From: a virus
Taxonomy: Duplodnaviria > Heunggongvirae > Uroviricota > Caudoviricetes
DNA: 5,118 bases
Direction: 5' to 3' (one strand)
IMG/VR virus record: IMGVR_UViG_3300039366_000147
Location: 1-5,118 of that record
Shown: positions 1 to 5,118 of the stretch, in pieces
How the letters are laid out: the number at the start of each line of letters is the position of its first letter
Numbering within the stretch: the stretch's first letter is position 1
Program-made: the position numbers and the translations under genes
The notes under the pieces: model-generated
The model's database searches: none
Told to the model about the DNA's origin: nothing
What the model saw: only the letters and a program-made list of their open reading frames with translations

Positions 1-644
1 GTATAGACACGAAAACCGCGCAGAAGGATAAGTTCGGCGCGGGTAAGAACGGTTTTACCCGTGGTAACCCCCAGACTGGCACGCCTGCCACCGATCTGGA
101 TGATGACTACTTTGATATGTTGCAGGAAGAACTCTGCAGCGTGGTGGAGGCATCCGGTGCCAGCCTGGAGAAGGCGCGGCACGACCAGTTGCTTACCGCG
201 CTTCGTGCGCTGCTGTTAAGCCGCAAGAATCCGTTTGGCGATATCAAATCGGATGGCACGGTGAAAACAGCTCTCGAAAACCTTGGTTTGGGAGAAGCGG
301 CGAAAAGGGATGTGGGTACAGGAGAAAATCAGATACCGGATATGTCAGCCTGGAAAAGAAATCCGAGTTCTAATCGCTGGAGAAAATTGCCTGATGGAAC
401 CATCATTCAAATGGGAATATCAGCATCAGGGCCATTAGGCTCACCTGTAAATATCACCCTGCCGATATCTTTCAGCAATACCAATTATTGTGTTGTTGCA
501 TCGTACGATAATGCACGGTCAGGTGTGTCAACAATGGTTAGTTTTGCAGCATTACCTGTTTCACCATCGCAATTTTCCCTGATGTCATCTGTGACTGAGC
601 AAGGAATAAATCCTTTTGCTTACTGGATTGCTTTTGGAGATTGA
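1..644 (+). CDS. Phage tail fibre protein, distal portion (5' end outside window; codons in phase from nt 3); the part after the crossover site is variable cassette 1
   Basis: Frame is open from the window edge to TGA at 642..644. It sits 3 nt upstream of a tail-fibre-assembly gene (GGAGA at 637..641, ATG at 648). The left crossover site lies in frame and encodes ENLGLGE. The gene-order logic is that of Mu S-U and e14 stf-tfa. Confidence 0.8.
271..296. repeat. Left crossover site of the invertible segment (gix/pix/hix-like, 26 bp)
   Basis: CTCTCGAAAACC-TT-GGTTTGGGAGAA. It matches the reverse complement of 2129..2154 at 21 of 26 positions, including a perfect 14-bp run (283..296 against 2129..2142). 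It has the AAACC-NN-GGTTT architecture I recall for Din-family sites. Confidence 0.7.
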
Positions 645-647
645 TAA

Positions 648-1067
648 ATGGACAGATACTTCTATTCACAAAAAGAAAATGGTTTTTTTACCGATTTAAA
701 TAAAGCACCTTCAGATGCTGTTGAGATAACCACGGATGAATGGCTATCACTACTGGATGGTCAGGATAATGGCATGAAAATAGTCAGCAATCAGGAGGGA
801 TATCCGGTTTTGACAGAGCAACCACCTTTATCAAAAGAAAACCTTATTGCATTGGCAGAGTTGAAAAAAGGAAAACTTATTAATGAAGCCAACGAGCACA
901 TGAACAGCAGGCAATGGCCTGGTAAAGCGGCTATTGGTCGTCTGAAAGGTGAGGAACTGGCGCAATATAATTTGTGGCTGGATTATCTGGACGCACTGGA
1001 GCTGGTCGATACTTCCAGTGCGCCAGATATTGAATGGCCTACGCCTCCGGCAGTTCAGGCCAGATGA
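648..1067 (+). CDS. Tail fibre assembly protein (Tfa/U-like chaperone)
   Basis: 139-aa ORF with the C-terminal motif DTSSAPDIEWP that I recognise from Tfa proteins. RBS GGAGA lies 6 nt upstream, directly coupled to the fibre gene. Confidence 0.8.
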   Translation: MDRYFYSQKENGFFTDLNKAPSDAVEITTDEWLSLLDGQDNGMKIVSNQEGYPVLTEQPPLSKENLIALAELKKGKLINEANEHMNSRQWPGKAAIGRLKGEELAQYNLWLDYLDALELVDTSSAPDIEWPTPPAVQAR

Positions 1068-1641
1068 TATCCGGCGCGGTGCTGGTATCTGTTACCGTCA
1101 CCGCGTCAATGTAATCCAGCACGGCGTTAAGTCGGGTTGTTTCTGCCTGCGTCAACTTCCGTCCGGCCTGCAATTTCAGTTGAATCAGACTAATGGAAGC
1201 CATTGCAGTATCAATCAGTGACTGACGTTGTGCTTCTGCCGCGTCTACTGCGGCGCTATGCTGTGCCTCGGTATCCGTCACCCATTTCTCACCATCCCAT
1301 TTATCGTATGGCGTTAACGGGGCGATAGTGGTTGTATTATCAGGGTAATCACCCGGAACTGTGATTTCTTTTGATTCTCCTGTTTCGGTGCTAAAGACGA
1401 TTTCACCGCGATGGTCTGGCACATATTCCCATGAGTTAAAATCTGCAGATCGGCAGATTGCATAACCAGCTTTGTATGCGCCTGGGGCATCTAAACAGGA
1501 ATATGCCGGAATGCCGACACCAATAGCAAGATATTCAGTTGAAGCTGAAATATATTCCCGACTCATGACATCAAAGTTATAAACAGTAATTTCTCCTGCC
1601 ATAGTGGCAATTAATTCACTGTTTAATTCTGCGTTATTCAT
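1039..1641 (-). CDS. Tail fibre assembly protein, second copy, for the alternative cassette
   Basis: 200-aa ORF ending in DTSTAPDIIWPELPEA, the same Tfa C-terminal motif. Its ATG (1641..1639) overlaps the stop of the upstream - strand fibre cassette by 1 nt. Its 3' end overlaps the + strand tfa by 29 nt. Confidence 0.8.
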   Translation of the reverse strand: MNNAELNSELIATMAGEITVYNFDVMSREYISASTEYLAIGVGIPAYSCLDAPGAYKAGYAICRSADFNSWEYVPDHRGEIVFSTETGESKEITVPGDYPDNTTTIAPLTPYDKWDGEKWVTDTEAQHSAAVDAAEAQRQSLIDTAMASISLIQLKLQAGRKLTQAETTRLNAVLDYIDAVTVTDTSTAPDIIWPELPEA

Positions 1642-2141
1642 TATGCAGCCCTCACGATATAGTTAAATGCAATATTCCGTGGACGGGTTTCATTTATCCC
1701 ATATGCTGTTGTTCTCTGATTCCCGACAAAATATCCATTTGGATTAGAAGATACAGAATAATCATCAAAATCAAGAGGGCTATCAGCACCCGGCGTCAGG
1801 CTTGCAATATATCCTCTTCCCATAACTTCTGATGCTGGTATTTCTTTTGTACGATAATCACTAACTCTGAAGAGCTGCCCTTGGTGGGTGTGTGATTCCA
1901 CTCCTCCATTCTGAAGACTTAGCAAGGCACGTACAGCATCAATACCACGCCCGTCATCCCAGCCACGAATAAACTCACCACGTAAATCAGGCAATTTATT
2001 TGTCGGATAAGCCTTTGCCAGTTCCGGGTATTCTTCAGCAGAAAAAGCGGCACCGTTGCATTCAGCCAGCCTGTTGGCGGAGTGGCTGAAGGCCACGGAA
2101 CAGGCACACCAACCGGTAATGCAGAGCCTTCTCCCAAACCA
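1641..2141 (-). pseudogene. Alternative tail-fibre distal cassette, promoterless, with an apparent -1 frameshift near 2060..2065
   Basis: Encodes a tail-collar-like motif (ECNGAAFSAEEYPELAKAYPTNKLPDLRGEFIRGWDDGRG) in the frame of the 189-aa ORF. The frame set by the crossover site is instead that of the 87-aa ORF (INVGLGEGSALPVGVPVPWPSATPPTGWL...), which stops at 1919. The two frames meet at TGGCTGAATGCAACGG. Confidence 0.6.
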
Positions 2142-2154
2142 ACGTTTATGAAAA
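2129..2154. repeat. Right crossover site of the invertible segment
   Basis: TTCTCCCAAACC-AA-CGTTTATGAAAA, about 55 bp upstream of the invertase ATG. It is the inverted partner of 271..296. Confidence 0.7.
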
Positions 2155-2208
2155 TGCAGAAATAACGAGCAAATGGCATCATTCCTGCTTTTGTCAGGGA
2201 GATCTACC

Positions 2209-2526
2209 ATGCTTATTGGCTATGTACGTGTGTCAACAAATGACCAGAACACAGATCTACAACGTAATGCGCTGAACTGTGCAGGATGCGAGCTGATTTT
2301 TGAAGACAAGATAAGCGGTACAAAGTCCGAAAGGCCGGGACTGAAAAAACTGCTCAGGACATTATCGGCAGGTGACACGCTGATTATCTGGAAACTGGAC
2401 TGGCTGGGATTATATAAAACCGCAGACACGTCGTATGCAAGAACGCGCTGCGGTTGGCTGGTAAAATTTTCGATAGTGCGAGTATTGAATGATTTCCAGC
2501 CGTTACAGATTTTACGTGCTAATTAG
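2209..2526 (+). pseudogene. Gin/Pin/Hin/Cin-family serine DNA invertase, truncated (family similarity ends at about codon 64)
   Basis: ATG at 2209 with GGGAGA RBS. The N-terminus MLIGYVRVSTNDQNTDLQRNAL...GDTLIIWKLD carries the catalytic-serine motif and closely matches my recollection of Pin/Gin. After WKLD (nt 2400) the frame continues 42 codons with unrelated sequence to TAG at 2524..2526. The resolvase core and helix-turn-helix are absent. Confidence 0.75.
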
Positions 2527-2732
2527 TGAACAAACCACTCGTCAGCAGACTCCCAGGTATCTTTCAGAGTCTCCTGCGGTGCGTGTAACAGAAAGCCCAT
2601 CATTGCTGGTGGCTTTTATGAGCACCTCCACATTGTCATAACGCTTACTGATGCGCCGAGTTAATTCTTTCTTTAACGCATCCACGGCACCGTTTGGCAT
2701 TTTTCTTTGGCTATGCAGATCTCAATGTACAT
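2523..2732 (-). pseudogene. DinI-family (SOS damage-inducible protein I-like) gene, apparently disrupted by two frame changes
   Basis: Three reading segments on the - strand resemble E. coli DinI as I recall it: [11 protein letters not shown], then in the -1 frame [42 protein letters not shown], then back in the first frame [15 protein letters not shown] followed by stop. The total length from ATG to TAA is 210 nt, which is in frame. Confidence 0.5.
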
Positions 2733-2737
2733 AAAAC

Positions 2738-2772
2738 CCCCTTGTTACTGTATGCGCACACAGTAACAAGGG
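2738..2772 (-). promoter_or_regulatory. Perfect 13-bp inverted repeat containing a CTGT-N8-ACAG LexA-box-like core (2748..2763); alternatively a hairpin terminator
   Basis: CCCTTGTTACTGT-(9 nt)-ACAGTAACAAGGG. It sits 5 nt upstream of the dinI-like ATG. On the - strand the stem is followed by GGTTTTAT. Confidence 0.4.
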
Positions 2773-2850
2773 AGCGTCTAAGTTGATCTTGCGGGTTGTA
2801 TAAGCTGGGATTTTTAATGGATTTTATCCTGATTATTTGGAGATAAAGTA

Positions 2851-2883
2851 CCTTAAAACCAGCATGAGAGACTGGTTTTAAGG
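2851..2883 (-). terminator. Perfect 12-bp stem, 9-nt loop hairpin downstream of the 437-aa ORF (possible terminator)
   Basis: CCTTAAAACCAG-CATGAGAGA-CTGGTTTTAAGG, about 85 nt 3' of the ORF stop on the - strand. The stem is AT-rich and there is no clean U-tract, so the assignment is weak. Confidence 0.3.
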
Positions 2884-2966
2884 AAAGAATTGAACCGATA
2901 ATGCTAAATGATATTGTAGTGCAACCTAGTTGGCTTGTTTATTTTTAATGATAAGTGAAAATAAAG

Positions 2967-4280
2967 CTAATCTATATCACTTAAAGTACCTTTAATTTCC
3001 CCTTGCTCAATATCCCCTAACCCAAGTTTACCTACTAATACATTACATTGCATGATGACTGAAACGGTCATATCTCGACCAGATACATCTTCCTCTTTAT
3101 AATGCTGTCCGCTTACATTTGCAGAAAGTTCAGCATAAAAACCATTATTAAAGTAGTATTGCTCAACAGTAATATCATCTATATTTTCAAAAATAGTGTC
3201 TGATTCTGCAATGGCACCTGAGACACCATCGCTATCAAAAGCATCAAATGGATTTTTTTCAAACTCCTCTCTGCATAACTCCGCAAGATGATCACCAGAA
3301 ATTAATTTAAATGGGATGTTGTCAAATAACATATCAAGATGATCAAAAATTAAATCTGCAGAAAAATCTTCATTGTCAGAGTTTTCTTCCAGCACTATTT
3401 GTTCAAGACGTTTGGCTAATTTGTCATCATAATAGACATATTTGACTTTGCTTAAAGTTTCATTATTGAAATTTTTGTCATCAAGAAGTTCATTAAAATC
3501 CGTATACCCAAAAAGTGAGGAGGCAATTAAACCTAATGTTTTAAGTGATACATGTATGTTGTCACTTCTGAGACTTTCATCTATTTTTAGCATGAGATAA
3601 TATGCAGATGGAAATCTATTGGATGCATGAACAGCTCTGGCTTTTGCACTATCGTTTTCAAATCTTATTTTTTCCAACTCTGCTTGTTTATTTTTTTTAT
3701 CTAGCTCAAGCTTTGATATTGATTCTTTGTTCTTTGCTGCTTGTGTTATAGCCTCTTGTTCTTCAGCTTTGCTTTTCGCTTCAATAGCCTTGACTTCCAG
3801 TCTCAAACTTCTTTGTCTTATATGTTCAAGTATTAATTTCCGTTTATCAATATCTTGCTGAACCAATTGTTCAAGAAATTGTTTGTTTGGATTAGTCCGT
3901 AATCTCTCTTTATTCAGTTCTTGTTGTTGCTTGATTTTTACTAATTCTATATCAATAGCCTGTTTATGTAGTTTCTTTTGAGATAAACTTTGTACTGTGT
4001 TAATAAAAAGAGAAAGCCATGGGAAAATAAATAAGTAAAAAGAGGCGGCAAGAAATGGGAAAACAAATAACTCATTCCACCCTAATATTGGCGTTCTTGA
4101 AATATACTCATAAAATAAGTTTATTCGCTCTGAAGTTTTTCCTTCACCCCAAAAAAGGAGAGATAGATGGTTCCAGTTACATATTAGCCATGAAAAAATA
4201 AAAGCGCCAACAAATGGATCGTTTATCTTGGTTTTAGCGTTTCCTGCTAACGAAGTAATTATATCATCTAAAAATTTCAT
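2967..4280 (-). CDS. Hypothetical protein, 437 aa: N-terminal membrane anchor, central coiled coil, acidic C-terminal domain; function unknown
   Basis: Longest ORF in the window, uninterrupted, in a visibly AT-rich block. GGTGA lies about 10 nt upstream of the ATG. Hydrophobic stretches at about residues 22-36 and 70-94, a K/E/Q-rich heptad-like region at about 100-210, and a D/E-rich C-terminal segment of about 220 aa. No family recognised. Confidence 0.75.
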   Translation of the reverse strand: MKFLDDIITSLAGNAKTKINDPFVGAFIFSWLICNWNHLSLLFWGEGKTSERINLFYEYISRTPILGWNELFVFPFLAASFYLFIFPWLSLFINTVQSLSQKKLHKQAIDIELVKIKQQQELNKERLRTNPNKQFLEQLVQQDIDKRKLILEHIRQRSLRLEVKAIEAKSKAEEQEAITQAAKNKESISKLELDKKNKQAELEKIRFENDSAKARAVHASNRFPSAYYLMLKIDESLRSDNIHVSLKTLGLIASSLFGYTDFNELLDDKNFNNETLSKVKYVYYDDKLAKRLEQIVLEENSDNEDFSADLIFDHLDMLFDNIPFKLISGDHLAELCREEFEKNPFDAFDSDGVSGAIAESDTIFENIDDITVEQYYFNNGFYAELSANVSGQHYKEEDVSGRDMTVSVIMQCNVLVGKLGLGDIEQGEIKGTLSDID

Positions 4281-4321
4281 TTTTTCAAAATCACCAATTG
4301 GTTATAATTAATATAATGGAT

Positions 4322-4349
4322 TGTGCAGTAAAATATAATTTACTGCACA
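4322..4349. promoter_or_regulatory. Perfect 11-bp inverted repeat with 6-bp AT spacer in the promoter region of the 437-aa ORF (candidate operator)
   Basis: TGTGCAGTAAA-ATATAA-TTTACTGCACA, 42-69 bp upstream of the ORF start codon. No adjacent T-tract on either strand, so it is not a terminator. Confidence 0.35.
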
Positions 4350-4992
4350 TCATTCTAGGTTTTTGCATAAAATGTTCAATTGTTTTCAAAGATAGCTCCT
4401 CAATTAATATATGACGACTTAAATATCACCATACTCTTGCTAATCATTGATTGCTTTTCAAGCGATAAACACCAAAAAATACCGTATAATATTCACTCAT
4501 TTTATCTGCGTAATCAACTCGGTCTGCAGCTGTTACACCTGAGCTTGTGAAACGTCAGAGTAATACGGTTTCTTTACGCATAGTATGCTGTTTATACAAT
4601 CTCCATGGGGAAGTTAATTGGTTATTAGGGGCACTTGTGTATAACGAACAACTAAAGATGACAAGCCATATGGTAAGTTGTATCCAGGCGGTTATTGAGA
4701 TGCTCTCTAATTATTAATGCAATGTCGACTTTGCGATATCTTCTTTCTTTGAGAATCGGGTTGCCGAATGCATGTGGTTGATCTTTGTGCTGTGTTTGTG
4801 TGGTGTATGATTTTTAATCGATTAATAATAAGAAATAATAGGGCTAAGATTGTTGTGTGTACAAATGGTTTTTGGTTACAAATACACCTACTGATCATGT
4901 TCTGCTATGCTCTGATACCTCCAAAATGTACAATCAGCGGCATGAATTTTTCTTTGTACATATGATTGTACATAATCAAAGAGACAACAATT

Positions 4993-5118
4993 ATGACAAG
5001 CCTTTTGGCCGCAGAGGTAGCGAAAAGAAGAACCTTTGCAATTATTTCTCACCCGGACGCCGGTAAGACTACCATCACCGAGAAGGTGCTGCTGTTCGGA
5101 CAGGCCATTCAGACCGCC
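4993..5118 (+). CDS. prfC: Peptide chain release factor 3 (RF3), N-terminal 42 codons; continues beyond the window
   Basis: Translation [42 protein letters not shown] contains the GTPase P-loop AGKT and matches the E. coli PrfC N-terminus apart from residues 3-8. AAAGAGA RBS lies 8 nt upstream. G+C rises sharply here. Confidence 0.9.

Follow-up and report, generated by a model that had tools for sequence, protein, structure and literature searches.

An AT-rich single-gene insertion at the right end of a prfC-integrated prophage of Escherichia coli and its candidate phage-conflict product

The stretch of DNA analysed here (5,118 nucleotides, positions 1 to 5,118 of the IMG/VR virus record IMGVR_UViG_3300039366_000147, referred to below as the window) is the right end of a defective lambdoid/e14-like prophage of approximately 29.3 kb in Escherichia coli O78:H4 strain APEC E123, in whose genome (NZ_CP126955.1, 480457-485574) it was found at 100% identity. 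To the left of the window this record carries genes for phage regulators, a Q antiterminator, a holin, an endolysin, a terminase, a truncated portal and baseplate protein V; the order continues rightward with baseplate protein J, a tail fibre, two tail-fibre assembly genes, a truncated Pin-type invertase and a frameshifted dinI, followed by a gene for a 437-amino-acid 'hypothetical protein' and then by prfC and osmY. At the opposite end of the prophage, the attachment site attL, the gene order is yjjG, a 69-nt 'partial' open reading frame (ORF) and a tyrosine integrase gene. The 69-nt ORF is the native start of prfC, a stub that encodes 22 residues, and 230 nt separate the integrase gene from the attL core. 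The 14-nt core, ATTATTTCTCACCC, is matched exactly between the two junctions (Table 1), and this core, together with the integrase gene and the prfC stub at attL, establishes that the prophage measures approximately 29.3 kb and is lodged in prfC; it sits inside the 5′ end of that gene and not upstream of it.

The prfC ORF as rebuilt at attR is intact from position 4993 and is annotated as a 528-amino-acid RF3, the N-terminus of which reads MTSLLAAEV..., whereas the native MTLSPYLQEV... is stranded as the stub at attL. The prfC end of the window was matched in 5426 of 5426 complete E. coli genomes, the match starting at 5013 in those that are free of the prophage. These junctions show site-specific recombination of the tyrosine-recombinase type into codons 17-21 of prfC; the prfC-like 5′ end carried by the phage restores a complete RF3 ORF whose N-terminus is slightly altered, and the native start is left behind at attL. 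The first-pass annotation, made from the letters of the window, had left the type of junction unresolved; it can now be described as site-specific integration within the first 62 nt of prfC. The remark that the window holds no integrase or tRNA gene was confirmed by annotation and by ARAGORN, which detected neither tRNA nor tmRNA in the window, and no RNA family was found in the whole window with Rfam at E<=1. The second copy of the att core is located 29 kb away at attL. The placement of the AT-rich island between a phage module and the chromosome had to be abandoned, since the core and the phage-derived prfC start locate the island wholly inside the prophage.

The P arm of the attachment site contains the motif TGTACA four times (at 4858, 4927, 4955 and 4967), among them a tandem, TTGTACATATGATTGTACATAAT, which is seen again in the P′ arm; there a further cluster of four such motifs (L002 11364-11420) adjoins the integrase gene. 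A tandem TTGTACATATGnTTGTACATAAT, in the form TTGTACATATG(A/C)TTGTACATAAT, is common to both att arms, and the whole window holds five copies of TGTACA as compared to approximately 1.6 expected; the clusters are likely to be arm-type sites for the integrase or an excisionase. Approximately 13% of complete E. coli genomes carry a prfC with this phage-derived start and upstream region. It was also observed that ATGACAAGCCATATGG at 4658-4673 matches the phage prfC start (4993-5008), 335 nt away, at 14 of 16 positions; a fossil second att site was considered for this 16-nt repeat (ATGACAAGCC..TGG at 4658 and 4993), and as the similarity does not extend further it was treated as a chance match.

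The limits of the AT-rich insertion were established by comparison with other prophages in prfC. In four of four such relatives inspected (STLEFF_47, ETEC H10407, EH08-18-36 and O39:NM F8704-2; L003, L004, L038 and L039) the distance between an intact dinI and the prfC ATG is exactly 219 bp and the insertion is absent at the same position. With blastn, 2417-2742 of the window corresponds to the dinI region of the relatives and 4790-5118 to their att arm and prfC, and because positions 2742 and 4790 are only about 5 bp apart in L003 and L004, the interval between them represents 2047 extra bases in the window. The insertion breaks the dinI operator region, in which the relatives have two LexA boxes; in the window, position 4790 is the first base of a decayed LexA half-box, CTGTGTTTGTGTGGTG. 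Among the 5426 complete genomes the insertion is present in just eight, always at prfC and with at least 99.3% identity; approximately 700 genomes match some part of 2700-5000, and nearly all of these, among the matches listed, span only 4790-5000 beside prfC. A nucleotide search of a phage collection gave no match to the insertion. A second lineage, approximately 88% identical and collinear, occupies the same slot with identical spacing in prfC phages that possess different tails (a Mu-type baseplate or lambda J/Lom); conservation between the two lineages reaches 96-100% in the att arm (from about 4700 onward), whereas in the 4300-4700 spacer it does not exceed that of the ORF. The earlier suggestion of separately acquired cargo at a prophage-chromosome junction is thus supported by the rarity of the insertion (8/5426) and by its absence from relatives, though it holds for 2743-4789 and not for the entire AT-rich block, as 4790-5040 is the normal att arm of the phage with its TGTACA repeats; when it was checked whether the block might be conserved core sequence upstream of prfC, its presence in eight of 5426 genomes showed that it is not.

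The marked fall in G+C on which the first-pass annotation was based was borne out by 300-nt windows (0.29-0.37 across approximately 2700-5000, 0.37-0.56 leftward), by segment values (Table 1) and by a two-breakpoint maximum-likelihood fit, which placed the edges at about 2810 and 5050 and outperformed a single-composition model by 52 units of log-likelihood. The left side, described as roughly balanced, is not even, having its own dips of 0.37-0.41 at 400-900 and 1500-1900. The right boundary, compositional as well as biological, is the att core inside prfC and not the prfC start codon; the opening 62 nt of that ORF derive from the phage. The low-G+C tract has two parts, the 2047-bp insertion and an ordinary AT-rich attP arm (4790-5040). 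The block is AT-rich relative to the host (33% G+C as compared to approximately 53% in the flanking chromosome), and G+C at third codon positions is 0.235 in the 437-amino-acid ORF as compared to 0.622 in prfC.

Table 1. Features and base composition of the window and of the distal attachment site. Positions refer to the window unless a record or locus is named.
Feature	Position	Strand	Basis or remark
Tail-fibre C-terminal piece and assembly gene	117-1067	+	
Second assembly gene and gp53-like fibre tip	1039-2210	-	
Pin/Gin-type serine recombinase, truncated after ~67 codons	2209-2409		
dinI-like gene, decayed, frameshifted	2523-2732	-	RefSeq annotation; alignment to intact dinI of L003
Palindrome, 18-bp stem, just upstream of dinI	2736-2775		Fold -28.2 kcal/mol, z -6.1
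AT-rich insertion, 2047 bp, 33.3% G+C	2743-4789		blastn against related prfC prophages L003, L004
LexA box CTGTATGCGCACACAG (perfect CTGT-N8-ACAG)	2748-2763		Inside the 18-bp-stem palindrome
Terminator-like hairpin, 13-bp stem	2851-2883	-	Terminator scan; inverted repeat 12/12 complementary; fold z -3.6
437-amino-acid cargo ORF, WP_081178318.1, 'hypothetical protein'	2967-4280	-	Only long ORF of the insertion
Palindrome, perfect centre, 14+14 nt, 93% complementary	4322-4349		Inverted repeat; fold z -4.2
Sigma-70 promoter-like site TTGAAC-16-TAGAAT, facing the 437-amino-acid ORF	4352-4379	-	Consensus scan
Attachment-site P arm	4790-5040		Common to ~700/5426 complete E. coli genomes
Phage-supplied substitute prfC 5′ end	4993-5054	+	attL/attR alignment with translations; 21 residues encoded
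att core ATTATTTCTCACCC, 14 nt, attR copy	5041-5054		Exact match between both junctions
Native chromosomal prfC	5055-5118	+	Junction alignment
att core ATTATTTCTCACCC, attL copy	record 456185-456198 (L002 11186-11199)		29 kb from the attR copy
Segment	1-2742		G+C 0.463
Segment	2743-4789		G+C 0.333
Segment	2775-4992		G+C 0.330
Segment	2743-4992		G+C 33%
Segment	4790-4992		G+C 0.32
Segment, prfC, 126 nt	4993-5118		G+C 0.532
Full prfC			G+C 0.534
Flanking chromosome			G+C 0.534
Remainder of prophage			G+C 0.499

At its left edge the insertion meets a dinI that has suffered deletions of 29 nt and 10 nt as compared to the intact copies in related prophages. The single LexA box of the window (one match as compared to 0.04 expected in a pattern search) lies within a palindrome, the minus strand of which forms a terminator-like hairpin followed by UUUU, and the related prophages possess LexA boxes at the equivalent place. 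A second terminator-like hairpin is located 84 nt downstream of the stop codon of the 437-amino-acid ORF, and the palindrome at 4322-4349, positioned between the promoter-like site and the start of the ORF, may be an operator or a hairpin of the 5′ untranslated region. No transposase gene or terminal inverted repeat was found in the insertion. On the basis of these predicted signals the insertion appears to be a single, independently transcribed minus-strand unit composed of a promoter-like site, a palindrome, the ORF and two hairpins. We interpret the 2-kb insertion, located between an SOS-controlled dinI and the P arm of attP, as a rare moron, and we regard this anatomy of the AT-rich tract, the right arm of a prfC prophage made up of a 2-kb single-gene insert and an att arm, as very probably correct.

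The gene carried by the insertion is intact in all eight genomes and in the 88-89% variants, and dN/dS (the ratio of nonsynonymous to synonymous substitution rates) between the two E. coli lineages of the gene is 0.17, which indicates purifying selection on the protein. Homologues of approximately 437 amino acids with identities of 40%-89% are present in Escherichia, Enterobacter, Citrobacter, Klebsiella, Yersinia, Pectobacterium and Providencia, and further in Vibrio, Aliivibrio, Pseudoalteromonas, Shewanella, Aeromonas and Pseudomonas. The family has 30 invariant positions, among them DP-x2-G-x-F-x3-W-x3-NW at the N-terminus, A-S-x-R-F-P, F-G-Y and D-x2-F-x-N, with G-x-H and G-R near the C-terminus. 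By residue number the invariant set includes D21, P22, W31, N35, W36, R222, F223, P224, G391, H393, G401 and R402. Homologue genes have a G+C content of 32-44% everywhere, even in loci of 57-60% G+C, so that low G+C in every host is a property of the travelling gene. The 437-amino-acid gene is therefore real and horizontally mobile. One relative, P0081 of an uncultured Shewanella, bears the annotation GntR-family regulator (PF00392) and, at 545 amino acids, exceeds the family norm by approximately 108 residues, which may reflect a gene fusion or a miscalled start.

Hydropathy analysis of the protein revealed a strong membrane helix at residues 70-93 and a second hydrophobic helix at about 22-44. 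A lysine-rich segment follows residue 93, which by the positive-inside rule would place the remainder of the protein in the cytoplasm. An AlphaFold2 model based on the family alignment (pLDDT, the predicted local distance difference test score, 79 for the whole protein; pLDDT 87 and predicted template modelling score, pTM, 0.80 for residues 212-437) consists of helices to residue 62, a coiled coil at approximately 65-238 and an alpha/beta C-terminal domain at 246-437, the last 90 or so residues of which are modelled as an NTF2/cystatin-like fold. The protein would thus be anchored in the inner membrane, with its coiled coil and C-terminal domain in the cytoplasm. Residues 1-215, the N-terminal module, give matches to four PHROG families whose function is unknown; the module is also present in opposite-strand phage genes, and a protein search of the phage collection gave only two weak matches, both to this module. 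In an exhaustive profile search 67 clusters of full-length relatives were retrieved at E<1e-30 and approximately 2900 clusters at E<0.001, most of the latter joining the N-terminal module to other unannotated C-termini, in which no Pfam domains were found. Some homologues are tagged PF28006, and a literature search found no paper mentioning PF28006; it likewise returned nothing on WP_081178318.1 or on a similar architecture among anti-phage proteins. An identity with TolA was considered, as some homologues are named 'cell envelope integrity protein TolA', and is not supported, neither NCBIfam nor Pfam giving a TolA match for the window protein or P0040.

The genomic surroundings of the homologues recur in kind. 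In Enterobacter (L005-L008) they lie at the ends of lambdoid prophages, between umuDC, invertase or tail-fibre genes on one side and the chromosome on the other, at two different integration sites, and in Enterobacter bugandensis and a Pseudomonas (L024, L029) the homologue adjoins P2-type phage tail genes, an assignment inferred from blastp clusters and aggregate Pfam hits. In Pseudomonas umsongensis (L013) and in Psychromonas (L026), where the HamB E-value is reported as 0, the homologue directly adjoins the Hachiman genes HamAB, and in Psychromonas (L026) and Colwellia (L028) it is located immediately downstream of AbiH. In Halopseudomonas and Marinomonas (L032, L033) it immediately follows a three-gene set resembling a type I restriction-modification (R-M) system, an assignment which rests on gene sizes, blastp clusters and aggregate hits. 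PADLOC candidates beside homologues are PDC-M68B (L036) and a PDC-M26A/LmuB-like gene (L031), and genes for a CBASS (cyclic-oligonucleotide-based antiphage signalling system) cyclase and a SAVED-HNH effector are also among the neighbours. This company appears typical of genes engaged in conflict with phages. In Psychromonas sp. RZ22 (L026 9041-14902) the genes form a compact island in the order AbiH, family member, a 304-amino-acid ORF (presumed HamA) and HamB, with tens of bases between genes.

The reading that we favour, an arm of a prfC prophage with a moron that carries defence-type cargo, is considered likely overall. Its product would act as a single-gene phage-conflict factor of the lysogen, either in superinfection exclusion or in abortive infection, the C-terminal domain sensing infection and the membrane module executing the response; that the 437-amino-acid protein serves the lysogen in this manner is a tentative proposal to which we give slightly less than an even chance. 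A more far-reaching form of it is held with somewhat greater reserve, namely that the family may constitute a new single-gene anti-phage system in which an N-terminal membrane/coiled-coil executioner is combined with interchangeable cytoplasmic sensors, here NTF2-like, and an equal reserve applies to the possibility that this AT-rich cassette roves between prophage ends and defence islands across the Gammaproteobacteria.

Several observations weigh against this reading. No experiment or database gives the 437-amino-acid protein a function: no significant match was obtained in NCBIfam or in a Pfam set lacking PF28006, no family at E<=1 with PADLOC v2 (PADLOC-DB v2.0.0), no match in a sequence profile search of the PDB, and nothing at E<0.01 with Foldseek against the PDB and viral models (BFVD). 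The membrane topology rests on hydropathy and charge, the promoter and terminator calls are consensus and folding predictions, and promoter-like sites are no more numerous in the region than in shuffled sequence; in the P arm a consensus scan for a promoter of the rebuilt prfC gave only weak 8/12 matches. The association with defence islands was counted on approximately 20 contexts without a background control, and in V. vulnificus the gene stands alone among housekeeping-type chromosomal genes. The decay of the surrounding prophage, finally, implies that the cargo may be a relic in APEC E123.

Of the competing explanations, the one that survives best, though we consider it unlikely, is that the cargo is a lysogenic-conversion protein of the cell envelope or of stress, or a membrane protein of the phage life cycle, and not a defence gene. 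The TolA name that some sources give to homologues speaks for it, as does the widespread occurrence of the gene in V. vulnificus (134 contigs) in a neighbourhood that is not one of defence. The name, however, most likely derives from the K/E/A-rich coiled coil, as no NCBIfam TolA match exists; the gene is opposite in strand to, and lies outside, the structural and lysis modules, and its repeated occurrence beside Hachiman, AbiH, R-M and candidate defence genes is better accommodated by phage conflict. It is less probable again that the block is silent, H-NS-coated DNA without a current function in APEC E123. Silencing by H-NS, as had been suggested from composition, is plausible for a block of 33% G+C in a genome of approximately 51-53%, and the decaying prophage around it (dinI, pin, tail fibre and portal are all broken) fits a lack of function, but the intact ORF in the eight genomes and the 88-89% variants and the dN/dS value indicate otherwise.

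The third explanation, which sees in the 2-kb block a small, autonomously mobile element (resembling an insertion sequence, a miniature inverted-repeat transposable element or a cassette) that transposed into the prophage and generated a target duplication, is judged very improbable. An imperfect direct repeat (14/15 nt; copies at 2809-2823 and 4809-4823, a spacing of exactly 2000 nt) and a LexA-box-like sequence at both edges (2748-2763 and 4790-4805) are compatible with such an element. Against this, the block encodes no transposase or recombinase, has no terminal inverted repeat and holds the 437-amino-acid gene as its only long ORF; the 2-kb unit is confined to the dinI-attP slot, the flanks of homologues at other loci are unrelated, and recombination between diverged dinI-promoter regions is a better fit for the duplicated operator-like edges. 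The repeat itself is commonplace, since 24 direct-repeat families occur in 2.5 kb of this AT-rich DNA, and a target-site duplication derived from the 2809/4809 pair was rejected as indistinguishable from chance. For a conserved native origin of the block, as a core promoter or regulatory region upstream of prfC, one could cite its position against the prfC start codon and the lack of a mobility gene in the window. This explanation is already refuted and retains next to no probability: only 8 of the 5426 genomes carry the block, the native yjjG-prfC junction is found together with the original start 29 kb away at attL, and in most genomes the match to the prfC end begins only at 5013.

The prophage end with its moron, as we favour it, can be set against systems that are already characterized. 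The prfC gene is a listed prophage integration locus (Bobay et al. 2013, PMC3603311), and integration of an Stx1 phage in prfC alters the N-terminus of RF3 and removes the native ribosome-binding site and promoter (Ogura et al. 2007, PMC2323221). With the lambdoid/Stx1 prophages of prfC the APEC E123 element shares integration inside the 5′ end of the gene, replacement of a short N-terminal stretch of RF3, loss of the native ribosome-binding site and promoter, an integrase at the far end and the P arm that is common to about 700 of the 5426 genomes; it differs in being a defective e14/Mu-baseplate mosaic without stx and in its 2047 additional bases between dinI and the att arm, which the four relatives lack. 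Integrative and conjugative elements (ICEs) of the SXT/R391 type also integrate site-specifically into the 5′ end of prfC (PMC2786100, PMC3715440). Unlike these elements of approximately 100 kb, the APEC E123 element measures approximately 29.3 kb, contains no conjugation genes, and has only phage-type genes among those annotated between attL and attR. SXT/R391 elements reportedly also supply prfC with a new promoter and N-terminus, and their core is said to cover the same IISHPD codons.

Morons, a concept of Hendrix and Juhala, are extra, independently transcribed genes located between conserved phage genes, and the insertion resembles them in that one phage lineage has it and close relatives lack it, in its G+C content (33.3% as compared to 46-50%), in its predicted own promoter and terminator, and in the orientation of its gene on the strand opposite to the neighbouring module; it differs in that the 437-amino-acid product belongs to no characterised moron family. 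Defence and exclusion genes of prophages are known near att sites, as exemplified by rexAB and sieB of lambda, lit and mcrA of e14, and old, tin and fun of P2. Similarly, the present gene is a lone AT-rich accessory gene at a prophage end with a patchy distribution, and its homologues occur beside known defence systems and at the ends of P2-like and lambdoid prophages, whereas its protein has no sequence or fold relationship to the products of those genes and gave no PADLOC match.

In the remainder of the prophage a shortened portal that runs straight into baseplate V, together with disrupted tail-fibre, pin and dinI genes, suggests a defective element. The portal gene is only 924 nt and is joined directly to the baseplate V gene (L001 16474-17945; record 476930-478401), and head, tail-tube and tape-measure genes are missing, thereby suggesting a deletion derivative or an e14/Mu-type mosaic that is probably defective. 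Window positions 1-2410 hold the remnants of an invertible tail-fibre switch which is probably frozen. A sequence of approximately 100 nt downstream of dinI (2416-2516) is also present after the tail-fibre assembly gene in a related prophage at 89% identity, and this repeat (L003 610-709 and 3001-3100) may act as a 'linker' for the recombination of modules. Three minus-strand genes, two of them hypothetical and one of the TIGR04255 family, separate the Q antiterminator from the holin (L001 9424-11151; record 469880-471607), and as this interval is the classic position of stx and of other morons, they constitute a second cargo cluster in the prophage.

As regards the junction, nothing new is added by these findings, prfC being a documented site for phages and ICEs and morons by att sites being textbook knowledge; of use are the exact boundaries of the island, which correct its placement between phage and chromosome. 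Expression of prfC starts from phage DNA in approximately 13% of complete E. coli genomes, and the conserved 200-nt att arm yielded only weak matches and no convincing sigma-70 promoter for the rebuilt gene. The feature class is ordinary, and the potential for discovery is confined to the uncharacterised cargo family, a conserved, scattered and wholly unannotated group of proteins whose genomic company points to phage defence; as the candidate is one gene of 1.3 kb, this would be cheap to test.

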